A stretch of 64,000 nt of DNA from Candidatus Binatia bacterium (GTDB lineage: Bacteria > Desulfobacterota > Binatia > HRBIN30). Under the pieces are notes generated by a model. That model was not told the DNA's origin and ran no database searches. It saw only the letters and a program-made list of their open reading frames with translations. A program made the translations under genes and the position numbers. Location of the stretch: positions 8,508 through 72,507 of the forward strand of contig JBEKBJ010000009.1 in NCBI GenBank assembly GCA_050015455.1, in the 5' to 3' direction. Below, piece by piece: positions 2,943-30,927 of the stretch; position 1 is the first letter of the stretch, and every line of letters begins with the position of its first letter.

Positions 2943-3360
2943 ATCATGGACGACCTCACGCTAGACCTTGCGCCGCCACGCATCGTCCCTGTCGCGAGGT
3001 CACCGGCGGCACCTTGAGTCACCGCCCCTTTGGGACGTTCGGGACTGTTTGGCCGTGAATGCTTGCTGTTGTGATTGCTGGCTCTCTCAAACATTCATAG
3101 GATTGGATACACGTTGACTTTTTCCCTTGTCGATGGCAATTTAACACGCTAGTGTCTCTGCTTTTGGAGGTGAGGTGCAAGGGCAAGGCGGCAGAGGGTG
3201 AATGAAGTCCACTTGCAGTCTGGCGCGGGCGGTACGCGAAGGCGGCGACATGGGGCACGAGGTGGTGCGGATGGTGGGGTATTTTCGGTGGTTGAGGGCT
3301 AGCGAATTGCGTGCGCTGCATCACACGAGGCCGAATCGAGCGTGGACAGAGGAGAAATGT

Positions 3361-6312
3361 ATGGAGTCGCGTGACGCAGAGAACTCTACCAATACGAAAC
3401 AGCAGCTGCTCAGGCGCGCGGGGCGGGGCGAACCCACTCGCGGCCTTGTGCGGGCGGGGCTGATTGCGGCCGGTTGCTTGTATTTTGCATTCCTGGCTGC
3501 ACCGGCGGTGGCAACCGAGCTCGTCAGCGTCAACATCCACGGAGTTTCCGGGGACGGCTCCAGCAGCGGCGTGGCGATGAGCACGAATGGAAACATCGCC
3601 GCGTTTTACTCCGACGCCGACGATCTGGTGCTCGGCGATACGAACCAAGCCCGTGACGTGTTCGTGCGGGACAGCAACGCCGGGACGACCGAACGGGTCA
3701 GCGTCAGTAACTCCGGCGCCCAAGCCAACGGACCAAGCCAGACCCGCGGGCTGGCCCCGGCCATCAGCGGCAACGGCGAGATCGTGGCGTTCTATTCTGA
3801 TGCCAGCAACCTCGTCCCTAACGACAACAACGGCACCACCGACGTGTTCGTTCGCGACCGGCAGGCGGGCACAACCACACTCGTCAGCGTCAATCTGAGC
3901 GGCAAATCCGGAAATCGGCCGAGTCTCTTTCCCAGCATCAGTGCCGACGGCAGCCTTGTCGCCTTTCAATCCGCCGCCTCCGATCTGGTCCCGGGAGACA
4001 CCAATGGAGCAAGCGACATTTTCGTGCGGGACTTACAGGCCGGCAGCACCGTACGGGTCTGCGGGGTCCAGCCAAACTCCTCCAGTCTCAATCCGCAGAT
4101 CAGCGGCAATGGCCGCTTCGTCACCTTCGTCTCTGCGGCCACCAACCTTGACCCCAACGTCACGCCCGGGATCCTCAACATCTTCGTGTGTGATCTGACC
4201 ACGGGTATGGTCAAGTCGGTCAGTGTCAGCAGCGCGGGTGTCCCGGGCAATGGCGACAGCATGACACCCGCCATCAGCTTCGACGGCCGCTTCGTTGCGT
4301 TCAAGTCCGAGTCCAACAACCTGGTGCCGAACGATAACAACGATCTCTTGGATGTGTTCGTGCGCGATACGGTCGCGGGCACGACCGAGCGCGTCAGCGT
4401 GAGTTTAACCGGCGGCGACTCCAACGACGTCTCGTTCCCGCCGGCCATCAGTGATGATGGGCGTTTCGTCGCCTTCGGATCGGCGGCCAGCAACTTGGTG
4501 CGTAACGACGCCAACGGAGCTGCCGACGTGTTTGTCCGCGACCGGCTGGGTGGTGTGACTTTGCTGGTGGACCTCGGTGCCGACGGCCAGCAGGCCAACG
4601 GCGGTATTCCGGACATGCCGCCCGCCATCAGCGGCGACGGGACGCGGATCGGTTTCGCGTCATTCGCAACGAACCTCGTGCCGAATGACCAGAACCAGAT
4701 GTCCGATGTGTTTGCGAATGAGAACCCGTTCTTGTGCGGGACCTGTCCGGAGGGGTTCATGTGCGTCAACGGCTTTTGCTTGCAGCCCACCCCTACGCCG
4801 ACGATGACGTCAAAGACCCCGAGCCAGACCCCGACTCCGACCCCAACGGGCCCGACGTCAACGCCAACCGTAACCGTGACGCCGACCATGACCCCGACCC
4901 CGATTCACTGCATTGGAAACGAGGACTGTTCGTTTGGGCAAGTCTGCGTCGGGGGATTGTGTGTGTTCCCGACGCCGACGCCGACGCCGATCGCCTGCAC
5001 TGACTCGATCACATGTCCGCAAGGTTTGATCTGCCTGAACGGAATCTGTCAGCCGGCGCAATCGCCAACTCCAACCATGACCCCAACGCCCATCCCGACG
5101 TGTTCGACCGATGCCGATTGCGCCAGGACGTGTGACAACTGCCGCGCCACTCAGGACTGCGTCGGCGGCCAGTGCAGCCCGGCCGACCGCTGCGTTGACG
5201 GCGTCTGCGCCCCGACGCGGCTGTGCTCACCGGACAACACGACTGCCTGCATTATCGACCGCGAGACCTGCCTCAACGACACGTGTGTGTGCGGCGGCGA
5301 CTGCAACCAGGATGGGTTTGTCTTCGCCAACGAGATCGCGGAGATGATCTGTATTATGTCGGGTAGCTGTCCGCTGAGCGGCTGTGAAGCGGGAGACCTC
5401 AACCAGGATAATGAGATCGAGGGCAATGAGATCTGCGATGCAGTGACCAATCTCGGCGTTGGTTGTCCGTTGGGCATCCAAAACGGCGCCGCTGTCATGC
5501 CCGCTACAGCCCAGGCGACCCGGACGTTGACGCTGATGGGTCCCCCCAACTCGGTCTTACGTGGTCAGACGATTCCGATCGACGTCAGCCTCAGCGGTGG
5601 CCCGGAGGGGGTCACGGACGTGGCGACGGCACAGTTGGACGTGCTGTTCGACACGACCGTACTCAGCTTCAACGAGTGCACGGTCAATCCGCTGCTGAGT
5701 ACGACCGACGTCTCGTTCACCTTCATGCCGCGCCGGCCAGACACGGCGCCCAACGTGGAGCGCTTGCGGGTGTTCGTCGCGGACTTGGATGTGTGCAATC
5801 CGAACTTCACGCCCAGCAGCCCGGCGATCGGCAACGGGGGACTAGTGACCTGCACGTTCACAGTCAACCCGACGGCGCCGTTTGGACAGTCAGAGGTGGA
5901 GGGCGACCGCACGAACCTCGGCGGTTTTCTCGGAAACGTGATCCCGTCGACCCCAACCACCACGGACATCACTGTCGCCCAGCAGACGTGCACGGCCGAT
6001 ACCGACTGCAATCCGGGCCTCCATTGCCGCGCCGGTGTTTGCACGGGGATCCGTCCCTGCGTCGGTTCTGCCCAGTGTGTGGTCGGCCGGGAGGCATGCG
6101 TGCTAGAAAACGGCACTGGTGTCTGCGAGTGCGGCGGTGACTGCAACCTGGATGGGTTTGTGGAGGGAAACGAGATCCTTACTATGGTCAGTATCTTCGG
6201 TGGAGCTACGCCGCTAGCGAGTTGTCCTGCTGGCGACATCAATGGAGACCTGTATATTGAGGGCAATGAAATTTTGACCGGCGTGTATAATTTCGGCGCG
6301 GGGTGCCCGTAG
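3361..6312 (+). CDS. Secreted multidomain surface 'adaptor' protein: ~10 PD40/TolB-like beta-propeller repeats, Pro/Thr linkers, Cys-rich modules, dockerin-like module 1, cohesin-like domain, Cys-rich module, dockerin-like module 2
   Basis: The track ORF is 3202..6312; I take ATG 3361 as the start because it is preceded by GAGGAG and followed by a signal-peptide-like stretch (LIAAGCLYFAFLAAPAVA). Repeats of the form ISGNGxxVAFxSxASNLVPNDxNGxxDVFVRDxxAGTTxRVSV recur about 10 times and fit the PD40 pattern. PTPTPT linkers are present. There are two Ca-loop pairs of EF-hand/dockerin type (DCNQDGFVFANE and DLNQDNEIEGNE; DCNLDGFVEGNE and DINGDLYIEGNE). A beta-sandwich segment (QTIPIDVSLSGGPEGVTDVATAQLDVLFDTTVLSF) fits a cohesin-like pattern. 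Confidence 0.7.
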   Translation: MESRDAENSTNTKQQLLRRAGRGEPTRGLVRAGLIAAGCLYFAFLAAPAVATELVSVNIHGVSGDGSSSGVAMSTNGNIAAFYSDADDLVLGDTNQARDVFVRDSNAGTTERVSVSNSGAQANGPSQTRGLAPAISGNGEIVAFYSDASNLVPNDNNGTTDVFVRDRQAGTTTLVSVNLSGKSGNRPSLFPSISADGSLVAFQSAASDLVPGDTNGASDIFVRDLQAGSTVRVCGVQPNSSSLNPQISGNGRFVTFVSAATNLDPNVTPGILNIFVCDLTTGMVKSVSVSSAGVPGNGDSMTPAISFDGRFVAFKSESNNLVPNDNNDLLDVFVRDTVAGTTERVSVSLTGGDSNDVSFPPAISDDGRFVAFGSAASNLVRNDANGAADVFVRDRLGGVTLLVDLGADGQQANGGIPDMPPAISGDGTRIGFASFATNLVPNDQNQMSDVFANENPFLCGTCPEGFMCVNGFCLQPTPTPTMTSKTPSQTPTPTPTGPTSTPTVTVTPTMTPTPIHCIGNEDCSFGQVCVGGLCVFPTPTPTPIACTDSITCPQGLICLNGICQPAQSPTPTMTPTPIPTCSTDADCARTCDNCRATQDCVGGQCSPADRCVDGVCAPTRLCSPDNTTACIIDRETCLNDTCVCGGDCNQDGFVFANEIAEMICIMSGSCPLSGCEAGDLNQDNEIEGNEICDAVTNLGVGCPLGIQNGAAVMPATAQATRTLTLMGPPNSVLRGQTIPIDVSLSGGPEGVTDVATAQLDVLFDTTVLSFNECTVNPLLSTTDVSFTFMPRRPDTAPNVERLRVFVADLDVCNPNFTPSSPAIGNGGLVTCTFTVNPTAPFGQSEVEGDRTNLGGFLGNVIPSTPTTTDITVAQQTCTADTDCNPGLHCRAGVCTGIRPCVGSAQCVVGREACVLENGTGVCECGGDCNLDGFVEGNEILTMVSIFGGATPLASCPAGDINGDLYIEGNEILTGVYNFGAGCP
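5284..5469 (+). other. Dockerin-like module 1 of the adaptor protein (two 12-residue Ca-binding loops bracketed by Cys)
   Basis: CVCGGDCNQDGFVFANEIAEMICIMSGSCPLSGCEAGDLNQDNEIEGNEICDAVTNLGVGCP. Both loops have Asp/Asn at positions 1, 3 and 5 and Glu at position 12. Confidence 0.55.
5510..5985 (+). other. Cohesin-like beta-sandwich domain inside the adaptor protein
   Basis: ...LRGQTIPIDVSLSGGPEGVTDVATAQLDVLFDTTVLSFNECTV...LVTCTFTVNP... matches the cohesin pattern (V-P-V-x-L-S-G, then F-x-L-x-F-D-x-x-VL). Assignment is by eye only. Confidence 0.4.
6124..6309 (+). other. Dockerin-like module 2 (C-terminus of the adaptor protein)
   Basis: CECGGDCNLDGFVEGNEILTMVSIFGGATPLASCPAGDINGDLYIEGNEILTGVYNFGAGCP, followed directly by the stop codon. 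Confidence 0.55.
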
Positions 6313-6368
6313 AACGGATGCGTCGGCAAGATGATCAGACGAATTACCACCCCGCTACAGGAGGGAAT

Positions 6369-7595
6369 ATGAGCATGGATAGGGTAGCATTCGCACCAGG
6401 ACCGCACGCGTACGTCTCGATTAGGCCATTCCTTGTCGCGGTGCTCGCACTGGTGATAGGTTCGGTTGCCGGCGAAGCTCAGCAGGTTCCCACTCTGTCG
6501 GTGGGGAATGGAACCGGGGGCTCGGGCGGCAGCGTGCCGATCGTAATCGGCATCAGTGACGTAACCGGACAGAACGTCGGATCCGCCACCGTTGACGTCC
6601 TCTTCGATAATACGAATCTCATCCTCGCGAACCCGGCGCAGGACTGCGTTCCGAGCGTGGGTAGCGATTTCAGCGCGTCGGCAAGCATTGCAACGACCCC
6701 GGCGCCACCGGCGGGAGAAAGTCGGCTGCGCCTTGGCGTATTCAATATCAAATTCGGTTCCACCCAGACGGTTGAGGACGGGCCGCTGTTCACATGCACC
6801 TTTCAGATTTCGCCCGGAGTGACTCCTCCTGCGAGCTTCACGCTGACCCCAGATCCGGATTCGCCCGAGACTCAAGTTGCGCAAATCGGAGGCGCCGTTC
6901 TTTGCAGCGGCCCGCAGACGCCTTGTGATACCACGCCTGGCCAGATCACGGTGGCTGAGGCCACGGTGACGCCAACGCCCGTGACAACGTGCGTCTACCA
7001 GAGTGACTGTCCGGGGCTGATCTGCCAAAGCGGGGTATGCACCGTGGTCCCATGTACCACGACCGCGGACTGCCCGATCGGCATATGCTCCAACAATAAT
7101 GTGTGCACGGGCCAGCCTTGCAACACCAGCGGTGATTGCCCGCCGAGTCAGGTCTGCCTCAACCAGGTGTGTTCGCAGGTGCAGTGCACCAATGGTACCG
7201 GGTGTCCCTCCGACGCGATCTGCCTCGATGGGACTTGTGTTGCAGCCCCCGCACCAACAGCGACCGAGACGCCGACCTTGATACCGACGAGCACTTCGCT
7301 GCCGACGGGCACGCCGACTCCGCTGCCGACGGGCACGCCGACTCCGCTGCCGACGAATACGCCGACTCCGCTGCCGACGAATACGCCGACTCCCACCGCG
7401 TCACAGACCGCGACGGCCACGCCGAGAGCCACCGACACGGCCTCGCCGGTGCCGAGCGCGACGAACACGGGCGTAGTGCCGGCGCCAAGCTCCGCCGATA
7501 ATGATGGGTGCAACATGTCGCAGTCGGGCTCAGGGGGCGCGCTGCTGTGGTTGCTGGTCCCTGCCGCTCTCATGGTGTACCGCCGGCGAAGGTAG
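6369..7595 (+). CDS. Cell-surface 'anchor' protein: signal peptide, cohesin-like domain, Cys-rich mini-modules, Pro/Thr linker and a C-terminal MYXO-CTERM-like sorting signal
   Basis: The track ORF 6303..7595 overlaps the upstream gene by 10 nt. I take ATG 6369 as the start, preceded by CAGGAGGGAAT. The N-terminal region (VPTLSVGNGTGGSGGSVPIVIGISDVTGQNVGSATVDVLFDNTNLIL) fits a cohesin-like pattern. Repeated CxxxxxCPxGxCxxxxC modules follow, then the PTGTPTPL linker. The protein ends DGCNMSQSGSGGALLWLLVPAALMVYRRRR*. Confidence 0.7.
   Translation: MSMDRVAFAPGPHAYVSIRPFLVAVLALVIGSVAGEAQQVPTLSVGNGTGGSGGSVPIVIGISDVTGQNVGSATVDVLFDNTNLILANPAQDCVPSVGSDFSASASIATTPAPPAGESRLRLGVFNIKFGSTQTVEDGPLFTCTFQISPGVTPPASFTLTPDPDSPETQVAQIGGAVLCSGPQTPCDTTPGQITVAEATVTPTPVTTCVYQSDCPGLICQSGVCTVVPCTTTADCPIGICSNNNVCTGQPCNTSGDCPPSQVCLNQVCSQVQCTNGTGCPSDAICLDGTCVAAPAPTATETPTLIPTSTSLPTGTPTPLPTGTPTPLPTNTPTPLPTNTPTPTASQTATATPRATDTASPVPSATNTGVVPAPSSADNDGCNMSQSGSGGALLWLLVPAALMVYRRRR
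6486..6960 (+). other. Cohesin-like domain of the anchor protein
   Basis: Motifs as described for the anchor protein; assigned by eye. Confidence 0.4.
7303..7398 (+). repeat. Four 24-bp tandem repeats encoding the P-T-G/N-T-P-T-P-L linker
   Basis: Four units of gccgacg(g/a)(g/a)(c/t)acgccgactccgct are visible in the sequence. Confidence 0.8.
7488..7595 (+). other. MYXO-CTERM-like C-terminal sorting/anchor signal (GC motif, hydrophobic helix, RRRR, stop)
   Basis: The tail has a conserved Gly-Cys, an ~18-residue hydrophobic stretch (ALLWLLVPAALMVY) and four terminal Arg. From memory this matches the MYXO-CTERM (TIGR03901-type) architecture. Confidence 0.55.
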
Positions 7596-7627
7596 CCCTT
7601 CGGGGAGCAAACAGCGGCTCTGCACAC

Positions 7628-7660
7628 GAGAGGAGGCCTCCGCGCCTCCTCTCGCTTTTG
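7628..7660 (+). terminator. Rho-independent terminator candidate after the surface-protein operon
   Basis: The stem GAGAGGAGG ... CCTCCTCTC has a 7-nt loop and is followed by GCTTTTGGGG. Confidence 0.5.
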
Positions 7661-7798
7661 GGGCACAGCAATGGCGGGGCAGGTTTCTGTGCTCGCCCGG
7701 TGGCGCCGGCAGCAACGCCTGCTGACGCGGTTTTCTTCGGGGCGGCCCTGCGCAGCCCGCTAGCTTGGCGGCGGATTAGTGGGTATGGTGTCGGCGCC

Positions 7799-9151
7799 AT
7801 GCAGGACGATCCGTTCACCACCCTGATCAAGCGACTCCAGTCACGCCAAGCCGTCGTCGGCATCATGGGCCTCGGCTACGTGGGCCTGCCGTTGGCGGCG
7901 ACCTTCGCGGAGGGCGGCTTCACGGTGGTTGGCTTCGATATTGCGGCCCACAAGATCGAGGAGCTACGCGCCGGCGGCAGCTATATCCGGCACGTCTCGG
8001 CGGAGCGCCTGCGCAACATTGTCCGCTCGGAGCCATTTCGGCGCGGCGGCCCAACCGGTTTCTACCCCAGCACGGAACACGCCCTCTTGCCCGAATGCGA
8101 TGCCATCCTAATCTGCGTGCCGACCCCGCTCACCGAGCACCGCGAGCCCGACCTGTCCTACGTCACCGGAACTACCGAGGCGATCGCCGCTCACCTGCGG
8201 CGCAACCAACTCGTCGTGCTTGAGAGCACGACCTATCCCGGTACCACGGACGAGGTCTTGCGCGAGATCCTCGAGGCGGGCGGCCTACGGGCGGGCGAGG
8301 ATTTCTACTTGGCGTTCTCGCCCGAGCGCGAAGACCCAAACAACGCGCAGTACAACACCAAGACCATCCCGAAGCTGATCGGCGGCTACACGCCGCGCTG
8401 CGGCGAGGTGGCGGTCGCCCTGTACGGAGCGGTGCTGGAGAAAATCGTCCCCGTGTCTTCGGCGCGGGTGGCCGAAGCTGCCAAGTTGCTGGAGAATATC
8501 TACCGCAGCGTCAACATCGCTCTGGTCAACGAACTGAAGCTGCTCTTCGAGCGCATGGGTATCGACGTGTGGGAAGTGATCGACGCTGCGGCAACTAAAC
8601 CGTTCGGTTTCACCCCGTTCTACCCTGGGCCGGGCCTGGGCGGTCATTGCATTCCGATCGATCCCTTTTACCTGACGTGGAAGGCGCGGCAGTACGATCT
8701 GACCACCCGCTTCATCGAGCTGGCCGGCGAGATCAACCACGCCATGCCGGCGTTTGTCATCGAGAAGCTCACTGACGCGCTCAACGAACGCCGGCGCAGC
8801 CTTGGGGGAGCGCGGGTGTTGGTGCTGGGGGTGGCCTACAAGCGCGATTTGGATGACACGCGCGAGTCGCCGGCACTCAAACTGCTCGATCTGCTGGTCA
8901 AGAAAGGGGCGGAGGTCGGCTACCATGATCCGTACGTGCCGGCGTTGGGACGCTCGCGGCACTACGATTTCCATCTCCAATCGCTGCCCCTGACCCCAGA
9001 GGAGCTACGACGCTGGGACGCCGTGATCATTGCCACTGACCATACGGTTTTCGACTATTCGATGATCGTCAGGGCCAGCGCGCTGGTCATCGACACACGC
9101 AACGCGACGCGCTCGGTCACGAAAGACCGAGGGAAAATCGTTCGGGCCTGA
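7799..9151 (+). CDS. NAD-dependent nucleotide-sugar dehydrogenase (UDP-N-acetyl-D-mannosamine / UDP-GlcNAc 6-dehydrogenase family, WecC/TviB-like)
   Basis: The Rossmann motif VVGIMGLGYVGLPLA sits near the N-terminus and the catalytic region GGHCIPIDP is present. Overall collinearity fits the UDP-glucose/GDP-mannose dehydrogenase family. The track ORF starts at 7508; the real start is probably ATG 7799 (MQDDPF...). Confidence 0.85.
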   Translation: MQDDPFTTLIKRLQSRQAVVGIMGLGYVGLPLAATFAEGGFTVVGFDIAAHKIEELRAGGSYIRHVSAERLRNIVRSEPFRRGGPTGFYPSTEHALLPECDAILICVPTPLTEHREPDLSYVTGTTEAIAAHLRRNQLVVLESTTYPGTTDEVLREILEAGGLRAGEDFYLAFSPEREDPNNAQYNTKTIPKLIGGYTPRCGEVAVALYGAVLEKIVPVSSARVAEAAKLLENIYRSVNIALVNELKLLFERMGIDVWEVIDAAATKPFGFTPFYPGPGLGGHCIPIDPFYLTWKARQYDLTTRFIELAGEINHAMPAFVIEKLTDALNERRRSLGGARVLVLGVAYKRDLDDTRESPALKLLDLLVKKGAEVGYHDPYVPALGRSRHYDFHLQSLPLTPEELRRWDAVIIATDHTVFDYSMIVRASALVIDTRNATRSVTKDRGKIVRA

Positions 9152-9332
9152 GCCGGAAAGGGCGTCGGCGGCGACGGAGATCGGCCCTCCAGAGCACTGC
9201 GCAACCCCTCCAGCCCTGCTCCGGAGGCAAGTGAAACGGCAAAAATGGCCCTCTTGACCCATCGCGGCCCGGTTTTTGCGTTGGCGGGGAATCAGTTTTC
9301 GGCCCGGAAGCAACTTTTCCATGACGTTATTC

Positions 9333-9362
9333 TTGACAATACGCCGGATTTTTGAGTATGTA
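9333..9362 (+). promoter_or_regulatory. Sigma-70-like promoter candidate (TTGACA, 17-18 nt spacer, TATGTA) upstream of the tandem secreted-protein genes
   Basis: TTGACA at 9333-9338 and GTATGT/TATGTA at 9356-9362 lie ~100 nt upstream of ATG 9467. Confidence 0.35.
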
Positions 9363-9466
9363 TGCGCGCACTTAGGTGGTGCGGAGAGCAGCCCGGCCCC
9401 TGAGTGTTGGGACGAAGGCACTAGGAGCCAGTGAGCAGGGAAGGTCGACTGGAAAGGAGGAGGGCA

Positions 9467-10612
9467 ATGCGAACGGTGAAGTGGAACGCTTTACTCTCAT
9501 GCCTCTGCGGACTCGCGGTGGTGTTGGGAGGCGTGGCGGTTAGCGCTCGAGCTGACGTCACGACGGAAAAGGGGGCATCGATCCTCATCTTTCCCAAGGT
9601 GCGCGCCGACGGCACGTTCGATACCATCATTCAAATTGCGAACACCAGTAACAGCATGAGGTATCTACAGTGCTTCTACGTGAACGCGTCCTTGCTGGAC
9701 TCGCTCACGCATTTGCCGTGCACGGTCCCCAGCGCCACCTGCGTACCGCAGTGCCAGGAGACGGATTTCACCATTTGGCTCACTAAGCAGCAGCCAACAC
9801 ATTGGAGCGTGAGCGAAGGCCGCTATTTCAATCCCAATGCGGGATTCGGCACTTATGATTCGGGCTTCGTGCCTGGTCACATCCCGCCGGTGACCGACTT
9901 CGTCGGCGAGCTGAAGTGCATCGAGGTGGATGCTTCCGGCAATCCGTCCATCTCCAACAGTCTAAAGGGTGAGGCCACCCTCGTCTCGCTTGTGACCGGG
10001 GGGGGCAGTACCTTGAGCTCTAATCTCACCGCTGAAGGCGATGTCGCCAAGTATAACGCGATCGGCATCCAAGGTAACCCGGACGTCGCGCCGGTGAATC
10101 CGCTCTTGCTCGACGGGGGCGCGACGTACAATGCCTGTCCAGCCAAGCTGATCTTGAACCACTTCACCAGTGGCGCGCCCGACATTGTCGTGAGCGAGCT
10201 CACTACCGATACGTCGGCAGAGTTCACCGACTTGACGCTGGTGCCGTGCAACGAAGACTTCGAGAATCAAATCCCGAAATCGGTGACCGTGCAGTTCCTC
10301 GTTTACAATGAGTTCGAAGAGAGATACTCGACGAGCATCACAGTCTCTTGCTTTTTGGAGACCGAACTTGCCAACATCGGCCAGGTGTTCACATACGGGT
10401 TTCTCGGCACGGAGGTGGCGCAGGCCATCATCACTCCGGTCGTGCAGGCCGATGGCTCTTCCGGCGGCCTGGTAGGCATCGCGGAACGGATCACCACTGT
10501 TGAGGTAGCGTCGCCGGCGACGGCGGCACGTGCGGCGTACAACCTGCACAGCGAAGGCAGCTTCATTCCTCCGATTGGGCCGGACCAGATCACGCTGCCG
10601 GCAGAGCAGTGA
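9467..10612 (+). CDS. Secreted Cys-containing protein of an unrecognised family (paralog A of a tandem pair)
   Basis: The start MRTVKWN follows GAAAGGAGGAGGGCA. A signal peptide ends ...AVSARA. Blocks shared with paralog B include FPK, CFYV, ETDF..LT..QP..W.VS.G, GELKC.EV, LKGEAT, YNA.GIQ, YN.CP..LIL.HF, LTLVPC.EDF and VQ(F/Y)LVYNEFE.R(Y/F)STS....CF.E. Confidence 0.7.
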   Translation: MRTVKWNALLSCLCGLAVVLGGVAVSARADVTTEKGASILIFPKVRADGTFDTIIQIANTSNSMRYLQCFYVNASLLDSLTHLPCTVPSATCVPQCQETDFTIWLTKQQPTHWSVSEGRYFNPNAGFGTYDSGFVPGHIPPVTDFVGELKCIEVDASGNPSISNSLKGEATLVSLVTGGGSTLSSNLTAEGDVAKYNAIGIQGNPDVAPVNPLLLDGGATYNACPAKLILNHFTSGAPDIVVSELTTDTSAEFTDLTLVPCNEDFENQIPKSVTVQFLVYNEFEERYSTSITVSCFLETELANIGQVFTYGFLGTEVAQAIITPVVQADGSSGGLVGIAERITTVEVASPATAARAAYNLHSEGSFIPPIGPDQITLPAEQ

Positions 10613-10684
10613 TCGCTGGCACAGAGGCAAAGAGGGGAAAAGGCAGTGGCTGGTTTCTCCCTGATAGGTGAAAGGAGAAGGGCA

Positions 10685-11971
10685 ATGCGTACGGTGAAGT
10701 GGAATCCTTTTCTCTCGGGTGTAGCGATGCTCCTGGGAGGGGTGCTCCTATGGGCGGGTGCTGCGCACGCCGATATCTCGTCGACTAACCCGGCGGCGAT
10801 CGTGGTGTTCCCGAAAATAGTGGTCGATACGGGCGCTGTGATATCGGACGCGAAAATCGACACCGTCATTCAACTGACCAATACCGCCCCCCAGGCGGTG
10901 AACGTGCGGTGCTTCTACGTCGACGCCAACGGGCACTGCTCGAACGCCCCGACTGCATTCTGCGATCCGGGCCAGCCGGCGAGCGACTACTGTAGCAGCC
11001 CCGGCTATTGCATACCGGGCTGGGTGGAGACTGATTTCTCTTTCCAGCTGACGGCCAATCAGCCGCTCGTGTGGACAGTGTCTGCAGGCTTGGCCGGCGG
11101 AGACTTTCCACTCGCCTCGTTGCCAGGTATAGGCGGTGAGCTCAACACCGGCAGCATCCCGCAGGCGGCTGAGGATCCGATGCTCGGCGAGCTGAAATGC
11201 GTCGAGGTCGGCGATGACGAGATGCCGGTCGATACGAACGACCTCAAGGGCGAAGCGACAATAGAGCTCCTGACCGGGGTAAATATCGACATCGAGGGCT
11301 ACAACGCCGTCGGCATCCAGGCGATCCCAGGGAGCTGCAGCGGCGACTCCTCGATATCGTGCACCGCCGATACGGACTGCCAGCCGCCGGCAACGAGTGC
11401 TGATGACACGCCGTGCATACACGTGAACAATTTTGACAACACTCTGGTGATCGGCGGGCCGAACGCGGAGTACAACGGTTGCCCGAACACCCTCATCCTT
11501 GACCACTTCTTCGATGACGCGCCGGTGCTTGGGAGCAACGTCGATACGTGGCTCACGTTGGTGCCGTGCTCGGAGGACTTCTTCACACAGACCTGCGTCA
11601 CAACCACCGTGCAGTATCTGGTGTACAATGAATTCGAGCAGCGCTTCTCGACCAGCCGGCCGCTGACGTGCTTTAGCGAGTTGCAGCTTTCGGACATCGA
11701 TACGCGTCTTGGCAACGACCCGCCGAACAACTACACCTCGATCTTCAATGTCAATGTTGAGGGGACGCTGACGGGGCAGACGGTTATCCGTGGTGTCGCC
11801 GATTCCGACCCTACCATAACGCCTGGACACGGTCTGCTCGGGGTCGTACATGAGTTCCACCAGCTGAACGGCGGATCGGCCCCCGTCTTCTCCGCTGCGT
11901 ATATGCTGGATCTGAGTGGCTCACGGACGCAGGCCGACATCGTGCTGATGCCGCCGCCTTCGCCACAGTAA
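10685..11971 (+). CDS. Secreted Cys-rich protein of an unrecognised family (paralog B, with inserted Cys-rich loops)
   Basis: The start context (GAAAGGAGAAGGGCAATGCGTACGGTGAAGTGGAA) is nearly identical to paralog A at the nucleotide level. A signal peptide is present, and the conserved blocks are the same as in paralog A. Confidence 0.7.
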   Translation: MRTVKWNPFLSGVAMLLGGVLLWAGAAHADISSTNPAAIVVFPKIVVDTGAVISDAKIDTVIQLTNTAPQAVNVRCFYVDANGHCSNAPTAFCDPGQPASDYCSSPGYCIPGWVETDFSFQLTANQPLVWTVSAGLAGGDFPLASLPGIGGELNTGSIPQAAEDPMLGELKCVEVGDDEMPVDTNDLKGEATIELLTGVNIDIEGYNAVGIQAIPGSCSGDSSISCTADTDCQPPATSADDTPCIHVNNFDNTLVIGGPNAEYNGCPNTLILDHFFDDAPVLGSNVDTWLTLVPCSEDFFTQTCVTTTVQYLVYNEFEQRFSTSRPLTCFSELQLSDIDTRLGNDPPNNYTSIFNVNVEGTLTGQTVIRGVADSDPTITPGHGLLGVVHEFHQLNGGSAPVFSAAYMLDLSGSRTQADIVLMPPPSPQ

Positions 11972-11999
11972 TTGCATCGAGTAGCTTTGGTGAGCGCAA

Positions 12000-12036
12000 G
12001 GGCCGGGCGGTCATCTCGCCCGGCCCTTCGCTTTTC
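12000..12036. terminator. Bidirectional rho-independent terminator between convergent genes
   Basis: The stem GGGCCGGGCGG ... GCCCGGCCC has a tcatctc loop and is followed by TTCGCTTTTCTGG. Confidence 0.5.
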
Positions 12037-12069
12037 TGGCCCGGAAGACCCCCGGCGCTTTCGCCACCG

Positions 12070-13419
12070 CTACGCGTTCCCGGCGAAGGGGACGTTGACG
12101 CGGTAGACGTAGGCGCCGCGGCGAATGGAGACCAGAGCGCCGCGCGCCGAGCGCACCTCGATCATTGTGCGGCGGAAATCCTCCAAACTCCGCACTGACG
12201 TGCCCGCGAGCGCAACGATAGCATCGCCACTCTCAACCCCGATCCGCGCCGCCGGGCTTTGTGGCCGCACCGCATCGACGCGTAGGCCGTTCCGCGCGTC
12301 CGTCAGCCGCACCCCGATCAGTTGCCAAGCCAGAGCGTCAGCCCTTTCCGGCGGGAAGCGGCGTGCATGCAGGGTCAACCGGCGTGCTCCGCTGTCTCCC
12401 ATGACGGTGAGTTCAATTGCACTGCTCTCGGCGTGGTCGCGAATGCGTTGGTCATACTCTTCCGCCGAGTGCACATCGCGGTTGTCGACGGCGGTGATCA
12501 CCTCTCCCGGAGTGATGCGGGCGTCCGCCGCCGGACTGCCGGATTCGATGCTCCGCACCACGACGCCGTACCGGCGCTGCGTCTGCATTTCTAATTGCGC
12601 GGCAAGCTCGGGAGTCAGATCCTGTACGATGGCGCCGACCCAAGGGACGTGCACTTCGCCGTAGCTGATCAGATCGGTGACGATGCGGCGGGCCCGGTTG
12701 ATGGGGATGGCGAAGCCGATGCCCTGCGCCTTCTGATAGATCGCGGTGTTGATGCCGATGAGATCGCCGCTGAGATTCAGTAGTGGCCCGCCGGAGTTGC
12801 CGGGATTGATCGACGCGTCGGTCTGGATGAAGTCGTAATAGGTTTGCTCGCCGGTCTTCAGTGAACGGCCGAGCGCGCTGACCACCCCTGTCGTTACCGT
12901 GTGTGAGAGTCCGAAGGGATTGCCGATGGCGATCACGGTTTCGCCGATCATGAGGTCGTCGGAGTCGCCCATGTTGATGTACGGTAGCGAGGTGTCGGTC
13001 TTGACCTTGAGCACGGCCAGGTCGGAGTCCGAATCCGCACCAACCAATTGCGCTTCGAAGTCTCGATCGTCCGCCAGCGTCACCTTGATCTCGCTGCCGT
13101 GCAGGACGACGTGCTGGTTGGTCAGTATGTAGCCGTCGGGCCGGATGACAACGCCGGAACCGAGGCTGGTTTGCTTGTAGCGCTCCACCCGTGGCTCGGA
13201 GAAATCGTGGAAGAACTCGTCGAACAGCGGATCCCGAAAGGCAGGGAACGGGCTGGTCTGGCGTGCCACGATGGTTTCCGTGGAGATGTTAACCACGGCC
13301 GAACTGACCTTGTGGACCGCTTCGACAACCGGCGTGCGCCGGATCGGAGAGACGTCGGCGTGCGCTGCCAGCGGCAACGCGAGCACAGTCACAAAAGCCA
13401 ACAATAATTGTAGCCGCAT
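12070..13419 (-). CDS. HtrA/DegP-family periplasmic serine protease with two PDZ domains
   Basis: The Ser-protease motif GNSGGPLLN is present, a catalytic His lies in the TNQHVV context, and two PDZ-like segments occupy the C-terminus. I take the start as MRLQLLLAFVTVLALPLAAHA (signal peptide, ATG at 13419); the track ORF extends to 13608. Confidence 0.85.
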   Translation of the reverse strand: MRLQLLLAFVTVLALPLAAHADVSPIRRTPVVEAVHKVSSAVVNISTETIVARQTSPFPAFRDPLFDEFFHDFSEPRVERYKQTSLGSGVVIRPDGYILTNQHVVLHGSEIKVTLADDRDFEAQLVGADSDSDLAVLKVKTDTSLPYINMGDSDDLMIGETVIAIGNPFGLSHTVTTGVVSALGRSLKTGEQTYYDFIQTDASINPGNSGGPLLNLSGDLIGINTAIYQKAQGIGFAIPINRARRIVTDLISYGEVHVPWVGAIVQDLTPELAAQLEMQTQRRYGVVVRSIESGSPAADARITPGEVITAVDNRDVHSAEEYDQRIRDHAESSAIELTVMGDSGARRLTLHARRFPPERADALAWQLIGVRLTDARNGLRVDAVRPQSPAARIGVESGDAIVALAGTSVRSLEDFRRTMIEVRSARGALVSIRRGAYVYRVNVPFAGNA

Positions 13420-13568
13420 GGCCAGTGAGTGCAGCACGGATGCCCGCAAGTCAAGGAGGAGAGACCGACGTCCGCAAAAGCAGGTTCCTCCCCTTACCAA
13501 GGGGAGGTCAGGAGGGGTTGCAAGCAGCGCCGCTGTTATGAGCTGAGCGCCGATTGGATTGTTACCGC

Positions 13569-14117
13569 CTATTCCGCGAACACCGCGGCGGCCACCACGG
13601 ACGTCCACAGCCCGTCCTTATCACCGATGGCGGACTGCGTGACATTGCGCGTGACAACAATCTCGGTCGACAAACGCCACACGTCCTTGCGCTCGTCGTA
13701 GCTCTTGTTGGCGTCGAACTCGACACCCAGGAGCGTCGCCAGCATGGAGGCGGCGAGGTCTTCGGCGTAATCGCCCGCCTTGTCGTCGGTCTGCCCGAAG
13801 CTGTGGTGCTCGGCCAGATAACCGTACTGCGTGCGGTCCTTGGGGATGGCGACGCCGACCGAGGCAGCAATCAAACGGTGCGGTTCGTTGGTGGCGTTAT
13901 CGCTCATGACGACGTAAAGAATCTGGCCGGGTTTGAGCAGCGTCAGGCCTTCCTGCGCGGTGATCAACTTGGCGTGAGGCGGGAAAATGCTCGAGACGCG
14001 AACGACGTTGAACTGTGCGATCTTGGCGCTGCGCAGGGCCATTTCGAAGCTGGTCAGCTTCTCGCGATGCTTCCCCACTCCTCGGGTGAGAAAGATCTTC
14101 TTGGCCACCATCGACAT
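13569..14117 (-). CDS. pdaD: Pyruvoyl-dependent arginine decarboxylase
   Basis: Collinear match to the PdaD family: FLTRGVGKH...LTSFEMAL...NVVRVSSIFPP, with the Ser-Ser site of self-cleavage. The start ATG (MSMVAKK) is preceded by GGAGGAG. Confidence 0.8.
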   Translation of the reverse strand: MSMVAKKIFLTRGVGKHREKLTSFEMALRSAKIAQFNVVRVSSIFPPHAKLITAQEGLTLLKPGQILYVVMSDNATNEPHRLIAASVGVAIPKDRTQYGYLAEHHSFGQTDDKAGDYAEDLAASMLATLLGVEFDANKSYDERKDVWRLSTEIVVTRNVTQSAIGDKDGLWTSVVAAAVFAE

Positions 14118-14147
14118 CGCTACTCCTCCTTCCCCAAGAGCCACCGA

Positions 14148-14179
14148 GATTGCGGCGCGTTTAACACGATTGCGGCGCG
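14148..14179. promoter_or_regulatory. 12-bp direct repeat (GATTGCGGCGCG, two copies 20 bp apart) upstream of pdaD; candidate operator
   Basis: Exact repeats at 14148-14159 and 14168-14179 lie in the 115-bp gap between the mutase gene and pdaD. Confidence 0.25.
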
Positions 14180-14231
14180 GCTACAACCGCAGCCTCGGTA
14201 CAGTGGAACTGCCGACACGGGGCGCAGCCCG

Positions 14232-15898
<1,667 letters not shown>

Positions 15899-15902
<4 letters not shown>

Positions 15903-16398
15903 TCGATCACCGCCAGCGCCTGGCCTGCCTCCACCGCTTGCCCCGGCTCGACCAGCACCTCTTTTACTTCGCCGGTGGCAGGTGACTTCACCTCGTTCTC
16001 CATCTTCATCGCTTCGATGACCAGTAGTCCCTGGTCGCGCACGACCACATCGCCGACCTGGATCAGCACTTCGACGACTTTACCGGGCATCAAGGCGCGC
16101 ACCTCGTGCCTGCCTTTCTCCTCTTCGGGCTCGCCCAACATGACTAGCCGCCGGCGCTCATCGACGATGCGTAACCGGAAGACCTCGCCGGCGATCGACA
16201 CGGTGTAGTGATCGCCATCGATCCCAACGTCGGCCACTACCGAATGCCCGTCGATGAGCAGCGAGTACGTGTTGGGTCCGATGCGCCGGCTGTCGACGGT
16301 GCGCGGCACGCCGTCGATTTCCACCGTGAAGGCGGAATCGCCTGCCGCGTGCACCTCGATGCGGTGCGTCTGCTGCTCGAGTTCCGCCAGGTACGCCA

Positions 16399-16399
<1 letters not shown>
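15899..16399 (-). CDS. Biotin carboxyl carrier / biotinyl-domain protein
   Basis: The C-terminal motif EAMKMENEV places the biotinyl-Lys in AMKM. The start shares an ATGA overlap with the upstream gene, and the gene overlaps the mutase start (ATGA). Confidence 0.8.
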
Positions 16400-17910
<1,511 letters not shown>

Positions 17911-18020
17911 TATCGTGATTCGTGCTCGTGAATCGTGCTCGGAGAGTCCAGCGGTGCTGCGCACCGCTGCGGCTGCTCGCTCTGTTCCACGAGCACCACT
18001 CACGAACACGACTCACGATC

Positions 18021-19589
18021 TTACAAGGGAATGTTGCCATGCTTCTTGGGCGGGTTCTTGTCGCGCTTGCTTTCGAGGATCTCGAGGGCGCGAATCAGCT
18101 TCGGACGCGTGTCCTCTGGCATGATGATCTCGTCGACGTAGCCCAGCTCGGCGGCCTTGAACGGGTTGGCAAAGGTGCGGCGATACTCGTCCACCAAGCG
18201 TTCTTTTTCGCCCACCGGATCGCCAGCGCGATCGAGCTCGTTGCGGAACACGATGTTGACGGCGCCGTCGGGCCCCATGACCGCGATCTCGGCGGTCGGA
18301 TACGCGAAGTTGATGTCGCCGCGGATGTGCTTCGAGGACATGACGTCGTAGGCGCCGCCGTAAGCTTTGCGCGCGATCACCGTGACCTTGGGGACAGTGG
18401 CCTCGCAGTACGCATACAGCAACTTGGCGCCGTGCGTGATGATACCGCCGTACTCCTGTGCCGTTCCCGGGAGAAAGCCCGGCACGTCGACGAAGGTGAC
18501 GATCGGGATGTTGAAGCAGTCACAGAAGCGCACGAAGCGCGCCGCCTTCTTGGAGGCATTGATGTCGAGGCAGCCGGCGAGGAAGGCGGGCTGGTTCGCC
18601 ACGATCCCGACCGAACGCCCGCCCAAACGTCCGAAACCGATCACGATGTTCTTGCCGTACTCACGTTGCACCTCGAAAAAGTGGCGATCGTCGACGACCG
18701 CGGTGATGATGTCGCGAATGTCGTAGGGCTTGTTCGGGGTGTCCGGCACTATCGAACGCAGTTTCTCATCGCGGCGCAACGGATCGTCGTCGGTCGGCAC
18801 AAACGGTGGATCCTCGAGGTTGTTGCTTGGGATGTAGGAGAACAGTTCGCGCACCATGGCGAGGCATTCGCGATCGTCACGGCCGGAGAAGTGCGCCACG
18901 CCGCTGCGAGTGTTGTGCGTGACCGCGCCACCGAGATCCTCCTTCGTCACCTCCTCGTGAGTCACTGCCTTGATGACGTCGGGGCCGGTGATAAACATGT
19001 AGCCGATCTTCTCGACCATGAAAATGAAGTCGGTCATGGCCGGCGAGTACACCGCGCCGCCGGCGCACGGCCCCATGACGACGGAGATCTGCGGGACGAC
19101 TCCGGATGCCAGCACGTTGCGCAAGAAGATGTCGGCGTAGCCGCCCAGGCTGACGACGCCTTCCTGAATGCGCGCGCCGCCGGAGTCGTTCAGGCCGATC
19201 ACCGGCGCGCCCGTCTTCATCGCCAGCTCCATGATCTTACAGACCTTCTCCGCGAAGGCGCCGCTCAAACTGCCGCCGAACACGGTGAAGTCCTGCGAGA
19301 AGACGTACACCAAGCGGCCATCAATGGTGCCGGAGCCGGTGACCACGCCGTCGCCCGGTATCTTCTTCTTGTCCATGTCGAAATCGGTGCAACGGTGGGT
19401 TTTGAACTTGTCGGTCTCCACGAAGGAGCCGGGATCGAGCAGCACATCGATGCGTTCGCGGGCGCTGAGCTTGCCTGAAGCGTGCTGCCGCTCGATGCGA
19501 TCGTCACCACCGCCCAGTTCGGCTTCCCGGTGCAGGCGCTCGAGTTGTTCCAGGTTCTCTTTTAGGCCCATAAGAAAGCTTGTCCCCAC
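18021..19589 (-). CDS. Acyl-CoA carboxyltransferase subunit (propionyl-CoA carboxylase beta / methylmalonyl-CoA carboxyltransferase 12S family)
   Basis: The carboxyltransferase regions are present (...[18 protein letters not shown]...GGARIQEG...), with N- and C-halves. The start is GTG 19589 or ATG 19571. Confidence 0.85.
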
Positions 19590-22821: not shown

Positions 22822-23100
22822 CGGTCAACGGCTGCCGCGCGCCCCGTGCCGCGGCGCTAGAGTTCCTGGCTTTTACCTTGTCAATGGCATAGAAGGGTGT
22901 CCTCGTTTCCAACGGCCCGAACGGCCATGACCTGCGAACCACGGTGGAGACGCCGCCATTCGACCACACGGAAGAGTCGACGGTCCCGGCGTCGCTTCCC
23001 AGGGTCGCGCTGTTGCGATGGGAGGAGGAACGATGACGCACACGCGTAGGTGTCTGACGGGCGAAGAGAGTAACCCCGGAAGGTGGCGGGTGGCACTCGC
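22822..23100 (+). repeat. Copy 1 of a duplicated ~270-bp leader (promoter/5'UTR plus first ~25 codons) preceding a dockerin-cargo gene
   Basis: About 90% identical to 29305..29567. Contains CTGGCTTTTACCTTGTCAA, a GGAGG RBS and the conserved N-terminus [13 protein letters not shown](N/K)PGRWRVALA. Confidence 0.8.
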
Positions 23101-29304: not shown

Positions 29305-29567
29305 ACCACGGCCGACGCGCGCCCCGTGCCGCGGCGGTAGAGTTCCTGGCTTTTACCTTGTCAACGGCATAGAAGCGTCCTGGTTTCCGACGGCCCAAAC
29401 GGCCATGACCTGCGAACCACGGTGGAGACGCCCACACGAAAGAGTCGACGATCCCGGCGTCGCTTCCCAGGGTCGCACTGTTGCGATGGGAGGGCGAACG
29501 ATGACGCACACGCGCAGGTGTCTCACGGGTGAAGAGAGCAAACCCGGAAGGTGGCGGGTGGCGCTCG
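29305..29567 (+). repeat. Copy 2 of the duplicated ~270-bp leader preceding the second dockerin-cargo gene
   Basis: Aligns with 22822..23100 with a few substitutions and one ~12-bp indel. Confidence 0.8.
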
Positions 29568-30927
29568 CCGGTCTCGGTATGACGGGGGACGGGTTTGCTC
29601 AAGCCGACGTCAGTCTCGTCTTTGGAGACCCAACTGCTTTCCCCGTCGCCGCCACCGCGGCGCCCGAGGCAAGCGGCAGCGCGGCTTTCGATGGAACGAA
29701 CTTTCTCGTCGGCATTCAGACGCAAACTACAGTTGGCGCGCAGCTCGTGTCGCCAGCGGGTGTGACGCTCGGTCCTCTGATCACAACCAATCGCAGCGGT
29801 AATGAGCCGGTGCTCGCTTTCAATGGGACCAATTACCTGTTGGCATGGGCGACGCTCGATGCAAGTCCCTTTGCCTACGGGCAGTTGGTGAGTCCGTCGG
29901 GAACTACCGTCGGCTCCCCGTTTCAAATCAGCCAATCCAACACCGTCATCCTTACCGGAGTGCAATGGTCGTTGGGCGGCATTGCCTCGGACGGGACGAA
30001 CTACCTGGTGGTGTGGACCGATTCACGGCTTTCCCCGGACAAATATATCTACGGGCGCGTGGTTGCGGACTCCGGGAGCCCCGTCGGAAGCGACATCATG
30101 ATCAGCGAGAGCCCCGGCGCGGAAGCCCAAGTCGCCTTCGACGGCAACAACTACCTCGTCGTCTGGCACGGCGAAGACTCCAACAGCTCCTTGGTGATGG
30201 GAAGATTCATGGACCGAGCGGGGGCACTGGTTAGCGCCGAATTCGTTGTGAAAAATGGCCCGGCTCCGAGCGACAATCCCAACGCCGTCGCGTTCGGCCG
30301 AACCAACTACCTTGTGGTGTGGCCGGACGAGGTGGACTCGAGCAGCCACCAGTGGAACATTTTCGGGCAATTGGTGACGCCTTCCGGCGCCCTCACCGGA
30401 GAGGTGCTCCAGATCACCAGCGAGCCCGGGGAGCAGTTTTACCCAACCCTCGCCTTCGACGGTCGCAACTACCTGGCGACCTGGACGAACTTTACGTGCA
30501 ACGTGTCTGCGGGCGAGACGTGCGGAGATGTGCACGGCCAATACCTGAGTCAGTGCGGCACGCCGATAGGCGCTGCATTCCCATAGGCGCGGGAGCTGGC
30601 ACCCAAATGATCTCGCCGGTGGCGTTCGGTGCCGGTCAGTACCTGGTGGTGTGGAATAGTGATGCCACCATCAGCCACAGCGGGATCACCGGCGGCGATG
30701 TGTACGGGACGTTCCTCGCGCCGGTGCCACTGGCCTGCGCCGGTGACTGCGGCGGCGACGGCCAAGTCACCATCGATGACATCCTCACCATAGTGAACAT
30801 CGCGCTGGGCAACACCACCCTTTGCGCGTGCGAAGCGGGCGACGTCAATGGCGACGGCCAAATCACCGTCGATGAGATCCTGACGGCGGTGAACAACGCG
30901 CTCAACGGGTGCGTGCAAGGGCCGTGA
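29501..30927 (+). pseudogene. Dockerin-tagged repeat (propeller-like) protein interrupted by an apparent +1/-1 frameshift near 30,590. It is either a real pseudogene, a slippage site or a sequencing error.
   Basis: Frame 2 (29405..30586) carries ~50-aa repeats (VAFDG.NYLVVW ... GQLVSPSG..G). The same repeat and the dockerin continue in frame 1 (30598..30927: ISPVAFGAGQYLVVW ... DCGGDGQVTIDD ... DVNGDGQITVDE). At the junction there is an imperfect duplication CGATAGGCGCTGCATTC / CCATAGGCGCGGGAGCT. Confidence 0.5.
30736..30924 (+). other. Dockerin module at the C-terminus of the frameshifted repeat protein
   Basis: [59 protein letters not shown]. Confidence 0.6.

Follow-up and report, generated by a model that had tools for sequence, protein, structure and literature searches.

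A tandem pair of secreted paralogs of an unrecognised family in Candidatus Binatia, a candidate two-subunit module of the cell envelope

Two adjacent genes, here termed A and B, occupy positions 9467–11971 of a 64,000 nucleotide (nt) stretch of DNA from a Candidatus Binatia metagenome-assembled genome (MAG) (assembly GCA_050015455.1, contig JBEKBJ010000009.1, positions 8,508–72,507 of the forward strand). The whole stretch is termed the window; its G+C content is 62.9%. The locus raises the question of why two related secreted proteins of no recognised family are encoded side by side with nearly the same translation start, and what they do once exported. The answer proposed here is that positions 9333–12038 constitute a self-contained two-gene operon for an obligate secreted A/B hetero-complex, which would serve as a structural or attachment module of the cell envelope. 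The probability of this reading is put at about 0.5. The association of A with B in a 1:1 complex, taken by itself, is considered quite likely.

Genes A and B and their products

The two genes, their signal peptides and one universal cysteine (Cys) are positioned as follows, with lengths in amino acids (aa) and the slash marking the predicted cleavage.

9467–10612, + strand: gene A, A-type subunit; ATG at 9467, 381 aa, stop codon ending at 10612
9467–9553, + strand: signal peptide of A, residues 1–29, Sec type, AxA site ...VSARA/DVTTE
10349–10351, + strand: C295 of A, a universal Cys
10685–11971, + strand: gene B, B-type subunit; ATG at 10685, 428 aa, stop codon ending at 11971
10685–10771, + strand: signal peptide of B, residues 1–29, Sec type, AxA site ...GAAHA/DISST

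The open reading frames are the NCBI calls ABSA52_04305 and ABSA52_04310 of the Candidatus Binatia MAG, identical in length and sequence. An earlier description made from the DNA letters only (the first-pass annotation) had reported proteins of 381 and 428 aa here, paralogous, secreted and with collinear blocks of conserved Cys, and these points are borne out. A BLASTP comparison of A with B displays 34% identity across the full length (E-value 8e-52) with the Cys-bearing blocks collinear, and A and B are paralogs of each other. The signal peptides and AxA sites, which were judged straight from the protein sequences, are present on both chains; export and disulfide bonding are predicted for both. 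Mature A has 352 aa, a mass of 37.3 kDa, an isoelectric point (pI) of 4.27 and 8 Cys; mature B has 399 aa, a mass of 42.1 kDa, a pI of 4.05 and 14 Cys.

Two Cys-rich insertions had also been noted in B only. Both are real but they differ in kind. The first (residues 85–109, C85...C109) is a loop present throughout the B-type subfamily. The second (residues 218–244, C218–C244) is a lineage-specific 4-Cys insertion that is of low confidence in the AlphaFold model. It is one of the Cys modules that many members of both types carry in the loop joining YNAxGI to YxxCP, a favored site for inserts with 4 to 12 Cys.

The designation of the family as unrecognised stands. Scans of A and B with Pfam, NCBIfam, PADLOC and PHROGs gave no match at E ≤ 1, and no clear profile match to a characterised enzyme or binding-protein family was found. 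Pfam searches with 61 relatives gave nothing consistent, just scattered single-member matches at E ≥ 0.012. Against PDB sequences, phmmer returned noise or no matches and a profile search returned none. In the literature searched on Binatia/Binatota surface proteins and highly expressed hypothetical proteins, no description of the A/B family was found. The family appears to be new, both as a protein family and as a genomic organisation.

AlphaFold2 models, built from input alignments of 61–63 sequences, are nearly all-beta. The predicted local distance difference test score (pLDDT) is 88.7 for A and 86.7 for B, and the predicted template modelling score (pTM) is 0.85 for each; A and B share one confidently predicted fold. 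Foldseek comparison of both models with PDB and BFVD, along the lines suggested by the first-pass annotation, shows no global match (query-normalised template modelling (TM) score ≤ 0.25). Matches to transglutaminase, PAD2, arrestin, pilin and capsid proteins have root-mean-square deviations of about 20 Å and were set aside as generic sandwich noise. One local match, to TM1070 of T. maritima (PDB 1nc7), has a probability of 1.0 with both models. The target-normalised TM score is 0.69–0.74 for A and 0.68–0.74 for B, over approximately 146–178 aligned columns or about a third of the query, and the sequence identity is 6–10%. A comparison of the N-terminal with the C-terminal half by hhalign (probability 0.1%) gives no sequence sign of an internal repeat.

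An alignment of 101 A-type and 101 B-type genes shows 31 positions that are at least 90% conserved and carry the same residue in both subfamilies.

Conserved positions 1–16: P43, T53, N59, C69, D100, F101, T106, Q109, P110, W113, G118, G147, L149, C151, P160, N164
Conserved positions 17–31: G168, N197, A198, Y221, C224, P225, P260, C261, N281, E282, E284, S288, S290, C295, F308

By this conservation the family appears to be under purifying selection. Five Cys are universal. Further Cys arrive as pairs or modules, and most members therefore have an odd number. A total of 96 complete pairs were compared in Cys parity: 76 are odd/odd, 7 are even/even and 13 are mixed, and the parity of the partners is correlated (Fisher's exact p = 2e-4, phylogeny not corrected for). 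Even-numbered members almost always have the extra Cys at column 96. The pair in the window is an even/even exception, where A has gained C96 (nt 9752–9754) and B has gained C304 (nt 11594–11596). In another locus (L003), A is without C295 and B has an added C96. These patterns suggest that one Cys per chain, probably C295, is without an intra-chain partner in most members, and they hint at an inter-chain disulfide, a free thiol or some other chemistry. A Cys–Gln thioester was considered for the odd Cys and dropped; there is no CxEQ-type motif, and C261 lies in C[SN]ED.

Pairing of A with B and the signals of the operon

The family is large. Word-indexed relatives number at least 1767 and 1980, and there are 999 clusters at 50% identity (E ≤ 1e-3) in public data. 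When one genome per GTDB species was scanned, 219 encoding stretches were detected, from which 77 loci in 38 assemblies were kept. Nearly all of these assemblies are labelled Candidatus Binatia. The few other labels belong to short contigs, or to bins that share the Binatia synteny and the promoter-like element upstream of A, and we infer that these are mis-assigned. The family thus occurs almost only in the uncultured phylum Binatota. The first-pass annotation had asked about phylogenetic distribution and copy number, with absence from all relatives as the finding that would lessen interest; orthologs occur phylum-wide at 48–64% identity, and assemblies carry at least 6–10 family genes each (a lower bound), with about five conserved pairs per genome.

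The order of the genes is rigid. In 82 sources (the window and 81 fetched loci, which include two duplicate fetches and the 77 loci of the genome scan), every open reading frame was scored with an A-type and a B-type hidden Markov model (HMM). The two types are well separated: the A-type HMM exceeds the B-type HMM by 384 bits on A, and the B-type HMM wins by 393 bits on B. Family genes form same-strand tandems with strict A-then-B alternation in 73 of the 82 sources, as AB (52), ABAB (18) or ABABAB (3). The nine irregular sources are contig ends or broken open reading frames, and apart from these no lone gene or same-type array was found among the 82. The window itself has no third copy of the family.

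Within a pair, A and B are 30–46% identical (96 complete pairs). The A–A and B–B distances correlate (r = 0.82), and five clades are resolved, with 30, 29, 25, 6 and 6 pairs, that of the window being in the largest. Because of the strict alternation, the correlated distances and the five pair clades, A and B are regarded as ancient, separate subfamilies whose genes are duplicated only together, as a pair. This replaces the earlier view of diverging tandem paralogs, and the duplication is not a recent one: each type has its own orthologs, and A is always followed by B.

The same rule extends to fused and split genes, all of which join one A with one B. Three fusion proteins (P0321, P0390 and P0391), mutually 48–50% identical, have the order signal peptide, A, B, dockerin-like segment (CxGDCDGxG...DxDxDG), PT linker and a domain of approximately 190 aa. 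Two others (P0255 and P0377) have the order B, PT linker, hydrophobic segment with RRRR, second signal-like segment and A. In a Binatia MAG (L084, positions 8001–14437) an A domain forms the C-terminal end of a 1766 aa EF-hand/CARDB/FG-GAP protein, and next comes a B-type gene, the called start of which looks truncated. In locus L083 (positions 3668–9920) a B domain closes a 1443 aa Vgb-lyase-like propeller protein, and the next protein, which begins 2 nt downstream, has a signal peptide followed by an A domain and a propeller. Some relatives also have PT linkers with a C-terminal "GC-hydrophobic-RRRR" tail or dockerin-like modules. The partner domains in these architectures are typical of extracellular or surface proteins.

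The start regions of A and B are a second trait of the pair.

9452–9498, + strand: initiation region, copy 1; Shine-Dalgarno (SD) sequence, ATG and codons 1–11 (MRTVKWNALLS)
10670–10716, + strand: initiation region, copy 2; SD sequence, ATG and codons 1–11 (MRTVKWNPFLS)

These form a direct repeat of 47 nt with 89% identity, longer than the approximately 14 nt of shared ribosome-binding and start context noted before. The nucleotide identity of A and B is 85% (28/33) in the first ~11 aligned codons and 55% in the remaining aligned coding sequence, and the identity of the initiation regions exceeds by far what chance or shared ancestry would give. From –20 to +36 of both genes the nucleotides are near-invariant in about 20 species, synonymous sites included. 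Differences between the copies are themselves fixed across species (CGA in A and CGT in B, GGAGGAGGG and GGAGAAGGG, AACGC and AATCC); therefore purifying selection acts on each copy separately, with no homogenisation through gene conversion. RNAalifold pairs the 3′ part of the SD sequence (GAGGG) with CUCUC of codons 11–12. The paired bases never vary, so covariation says nothing either way. The two regions are a small, clean case of selection at the mRNA level beyond the protein code.

Further candidate signals bracket the two genes.

9333–9371, + strand: promoter-like element; TTGACA at 9333–9338, an 18-nt spacer ending TTTTTGAG, TATGTA at 9357–9362, then GCGCGCAC
9369–9466, + strand: 5′ leader, about 97 nt, ending in the SD sequence AAGGAGGAGGG (9454–9464), 2 nt before the ATG
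10613–10684, + strand: A–B spacer, 72 nt, with the SD sequence of B, AAGGAGAAGGG; conserved in orthologs
11998–12038, + strand: intrinsic terminator; 13-bp stem with 10 G-C pairs, 5-nt loop, CGCTTTTCTG tail

An extended form of the promoter-like element, tTCCTTGACAa-N9-tTTTTGAGTATGTATGCGCGCAC, precedes the A start codon by approximately 100–115 nt in 18 further orthologous loci and occurs once in the window. The candidate promoter of the first-pass annotation (9333–9362) coincides with the TTGACA-N18-TATGTA conserved in these loci. A generic sigma-70 scan of the window did not call this site, and its assignment as a putative promoter comes from conservation and position. Its recurrence upstream of orthologs with just 49–64% protein identity is a strong phylogenetic footprint, and transcription is presumed to start near 9369. 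Co-transcription of A and B as one bicistronic mRNA is proposed because the spacer has no terminator-like site and a hairpin terminator follows B. The terminator has a fold z-score of –3.1, and none of 200 shuffled sequences folds equally well; it closes the A–B operon and could serve the convergent htrA gene as well.

The strong SD sequence of A and its flanking bases are invariant among orthologs. The leader shows a possible GC-rich hairpin at its 5′ end together with a variable inner hairpin. An outer stem CACUUCC/GGGAGUG can form in leaders of gene A (~85 nt; window 9369–9452 and, among orthologs, e.g. L003 9899–9984, L005 9898–9984, L021 633–716). In several orthologous leaders it encloses an inner hairpin that is species-specific in sequence yet self-complementary, with the versions CCGCUC/GAGCGG, CUGCCGC/GCGGCAG, UCUCUC/GAGAGA and CCUGUCG/CGACAGG. 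Single-sequence z-scores of the leader folds are not significant and no better than those of shuffles, and RNAalifold on a MAFFT alignment of the leaders did not recover the inner hairpin. No Rfam family or tRNA was matched within the window.

Proposed function and alternative explanations

On the proposed model the promoter-like element, together with the two initiation regions, which are nearly the same and very strong, would give matched synthesis of both chains. Sec would export both, with cleavage after ARA in A and AHA in B, and each chain would fold into a compact acidic all-beta body held by disulfides among the five universal Cys. A would pair with B, possibly by way of the one Cys per chain that lacks a partner in most members. 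Once assembled, the complex would provide structure or attachment within the envelope or at the cell surface, perhaps with binding of glycans; a surface-associated role, also suggested by the first-pass annotation, is plausible. The genome would maintain about five isoform pairs, and relatives would use the A/B module, fused or split, to carry surface proteins with FG-GAP, beta-propeller or dockerin segments. A more specific form of the proposal is tentative: pseudo-symmetric A:B heterodimers, cross-linked by the odd Cys, might form a lattice or fibre, with the five or so isoform pairs as alternative or layered coats and the A/B interface as a general docking device by which proteins with FG-GAP, beta-propeller or dockerin segments would join the coat. 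If true, both the fold and the principle of surface organisation would be new, in an uncultured phylum of global distribution.

Several observations weigh against an envelope module of this kind. Classical bacterial S-layer proteins are not typically rich in Cys. No chaperone, usher, secretion system, anchoring domain or dedicated partner is conserved beside the pairs, and the other four pair lineages neighbor unrelated housekeeping genes. The G+C content at third codon positions (GC3) of A and B is 0.75–0.76 versus 0.81–0.86 for the central-metabolism genes of the window, and codon usage thus does not support very high expression. The match in Cys parity is imperfect, with the 13 mixed pairs among the 96. 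Lastly, the polar residues common to both subunits (D100, Q109, N164, N197, Y221, N281, E282, E284, S288 and S290) would equally fit a ligand-binding or catalytic site. Regarding S-layers in particular, Pfam and NCBIfam show no anchoring or lattice domain (SLH, CWB2, RsaA-type) on A or B. Indirect signals of S-layer-like abundance are the strong SD sequences, the conserved promoter-like element and the acidic pI, with GC3 not indicating extreme expression.

Three known types of extracellular assembly offer comparisons with the proposed complex. The two-subunit surface layers, e.g. the high and low molecular weight subunits of Clostridioides difficile SlpA with the Cwp paralogs, and the archaeal SlaA/SlaB, are a functional analogy only. 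They too have two secreted subunits in matched amounts (presumed for A/B), an acidic pI, several versions per genome, and a module reused on other surface proteins with diverse domains. However, there is no homology, and A and B are mutual paralogs and Cys-rich. The cohesin–dockerin system is likewise a non-covalent way to assemble extracellular proteins (for A/B this is proposed); the slot of the window lineage is directly downstream of cohesin- and dockerin-like proteins, and A–B fusions carry a dockerin-like segment. However, the other four pair lineages are not beside cohesin or dockerin genes. Cohesin (PF00963) and Dockerin_1 (PF00404) have no match in A, B or 61 relatives, and do match in upstream neighbors of related loci. 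In curli (CsgB/CsgA) and in the Bacillus Ena1A/Ena1B fibres, adjacent paralogous secreted subunits co-assemble, and the Ena fibres are cross-linked by conserved Cys. Most members of the A/B family similarly hold one Cys beyond an even number, but there is no similarity in sequence or fold, A and B are globular, two-sheeted and of far greater size, and no CsgEFG-like protein, chaperone or usher is conserved nearby. Chaperone-usher or donor-strand pilins were rejected as a model; no slot has such neighbors, and the Foldseek TM scores for CfaB, CupB6 and CfaE are ≤ 0.17.

The main rival to an envelope module is a heteromeric extracytoplasmic ligand-binding protein or enzyme, with the five lineages as specificity variants; examples would be a glycan-binding protein of lectin type, or a catalyst that works through its conserved unpaired Cys together with the acidic NExE/SxS cluster. 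It is regarded as a lesser possibility, and it is kept open because of the many shared polar invariants and the odd Cys. The 31 positions conserved in both subfamilies, many of them polar, and the Cys beyond an even number would suit it; five isoform pairs resemble binding-protein families of differing specificity, and the adjacent nucleotide-sugar dehydrogenase gene suits a glycan theme. The sole reproducible structural likeness, to the ASRT/TM1070 sandwich, a predicted sugar binder, points the same way. TM1070 is of the ASRT type (ASRAH domain, DUF1362), an eight-stranded beta-sandwich predicted to bind sugars, and extracellular ASRAH versions have been proposed to bind cell-surface glycans (PMC2739507). 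The ASRAH signature is a Trp at the start of strand 1, an Asn at the end of strand 2 and a His/Cys pocket (PMC2739507). The sandwich superposes on one sub-domain of A and B, and the proposal of surface-glycan binding fits an envelope context. However, ASRT is a cytoplasmic homotetramer of single-domain chains of 116–125 aa, while A and B have 350–400 aa, are secreted and disulfide-rich, are encoded as pairs and are unmatched in the rest of the fold. Pfam scans of A and B and the PDB profile search (0 matches) found no membership in ASRAH/DUF1362. The likeness is thus a lead on one sub-domain and does not indicate family membership.

Further points tell against a binding protein or enzyme. There is no profile match to any family of either kind, DUF1362 included, and the other pair lineages are without a conserved metabolic or transporter partner. 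The fusion partners are surface-display domains (FG-GAP, CARDB, dockerin-like), the Vgb-lyase-like propellers being the sole exception. In heteromeric enzymes one subunit is usually without its catalytic residues. Unlike these, both A and B retain every invariant residue.

It is unlikely that A and B are independent paralogs that act separately and are adjacent by tandem duplication and conserved synteny. They are homologous with the same predicted fold and invariants, and each could work alone or as a homo-oligomer. However, A-then-B alternation in 73 of 82 sources, co-duplication of whole pairs into five lineages, correlated Cys parity of the partners, and several independent fusion or split architectures that always combine one A with one B all weigh against separate action.

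A variable surface antigen, effector/immunity or polymorphic-toxin module linked to HtrA, as contemplated in the first-pass annotation, is very improbable. In its favor, the two proteins are secreted, rich in Cys and without annotation, one of their loops is often enlarged by Cys modules, and they evolve faster than the neighboring cytoplasmic enzyme (48–64% versus 70–81% identity). The convergent HtrA protease gene adjoining the pair is indeed present (12070–13608, – strand). However, among approximately 30 orthologous loci only L011 has a homolog of this HtrA downstream (71% identity), and L023 has a partial match. Elsewhere the position is occupied by RNase R or arginine decarboxylase (SpeA), as in L001 and L003, followed by propionyl-CoA carboxylase. 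The HtrA link is thus not upheld: the adjacency is incidental, and the operon is not functionally tied to the HtrA gene. Nor is a toxin function borne out by the pair itself. No toxin, immunity, Rhs, CdiA or type VI secretion system (T6SS) domain or neighbor was found and PADLOC gave no match; both partners have a signal peptide and the same fold, unlike toxin/immunity pairs. The orthologs of each partner are conserved phylum-wide with 31 conserved positions and are not hypervariable, and the pair is absent from plasmids (PLSDB) and viral contigs (IMG/VR). The distribution data already contradict this reading.

A domesticated pair of viral jelly-roll capsid-like proteins, or mobile-element cargo, is hardly credible: some viruses with two major capsid proteins have two adjacent beta-barrel subunits, and low-probability Foldseek matches to picorna-like, calici- and birnavirus capsid proteins were obtained, but these have TM ≤ 0.2, PHROGs gives no match, no relative was found in IMG/VR viral contigs or PLSDB plasmids, the proteins carry Sec signal peptides, and across the phylum the pairs keep to fixed places in the chromosome beside housekeeping genes.

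The preferred reading, an obligate A/B complex of the envelope, has consequences beyond this genome. The Binatota are a globally distributed phylum without a cultured representative, and the A/B family is a phylum-level signature. To our knowledge nothing is known of the Binatota cell envelope. If the pair builds or docks the Binatia surface it would open a first way into the envelope biology of these bacteria. It could then also be a marker for detecting or sorting Binatia cells, and it might supply a new orthogonal heterodimerisation module for protein engineering. The rigid grammar of A followed by B makes the hypothesis of a hetero-complex directly testable.

Neighboring genes and other features of the window

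The immediate neighbors of the operon are as follows.

3202–6312, + strand: PD40/cohesin-type secreted protein, 1036 aa, upstream of the pair
6303–7595, + strand: cohesin-like secreted protein, 430 aa, with a cohesin-like domain, DUF7107 modules and a PT linker
7829–9151, + strand (open reading frame from 7508): nucleotide-sugar dehydrogenase, TIGR03026; nearest to WecC (UDP-ManNAc dehydrogenase) and TviB
12070–13608, – strand: HtrA/DegP-type protease with Trypsin_2 and two PDZ domains, convergent and downstream of B

In the lineage of the window the conserved upstream genes are on the same strand as the pair, and the downstream genes vary. The 1036 aa protein combines propeller repeats of the PD40/TolB-like kind with Cys-rich DUF7107 modules, a cohesin-like segment, PT linkers and two pairs of dockerin-like EF-hands; it has homologs upstream of the A/B pair in 22 related loci. 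The cohesin-type second gene is seen in L001, with weak partial matches elsewhere. Its product has a tail of the form "DGC...hydrophobic...RRRR" that resembles a sorting signal of the MYXO-CTERM/PEP-CTERM type, with no NCBIfam match. The nucleotide-sugar dehydrogenase gene adjoins the promoter-like element of A/B and is kept in 20 loci at 70–81% identity. It may tie the pair to a surface glycan.

The other pair lineages occupy unrelated housekeeping slots. One has DprA, TopA, TrmFO and a class IV aminotransferase upstream and GshB downstream; others are beside GlnE, or beside an ABC transporter and an FG-GAP protein. The A/B pairs are thus autonomous units.

Other features of the window lie downstream of the operon.

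12070–19589, – strand: run of housekeeping genes: HtrA/DegP, pyruvoyl-dependent arginine decarboxylase, methylmalonyl-CoA mutase, biotin carboxylase and carboxyltransferase (propionyl-CoA pathway)
15899–16399, – strand: small open reading frame within this run, biotinyl-domain-like by eye
22828–23100 and 29308–29568: two copies of a repeat of approximately 270 nt
23018–26065, + strand: 1015 aa secreted protein with a choice-of-anchor Q domain, PT linkers and a dockerin-like C-terminus
29405–30927, + strand: "DGTNYLVVW"-repeat protein

The housekeeping run is ordinary and is of use as a set of synteny markers. The 1015 aa protein contains seven tandem repeats of 147 nt (23827–25008, 84–93% identical), which are FG-GAP units. 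Dockerin-like ends such as that of this protein are common among the secreted proteins of this genome.

The copies of the ~270-nt repeat are 91–95% identical, and each takes in the sequence preceding a secreted-protein gene together with its first ~27 codons; the two genes are otherwise different. This is the second case of a duplicated leader and signal peptide in the window.

The open reading frame of the "DGTNYLVVW"-repeat protein ends at 30586 and appears to continue in another frame to 30927. The continuation encodes two dockerin-like segments, which form a repeat with 26003–26057. There is probably a frameshift, real or due to an assembly error, near 30560–30600.

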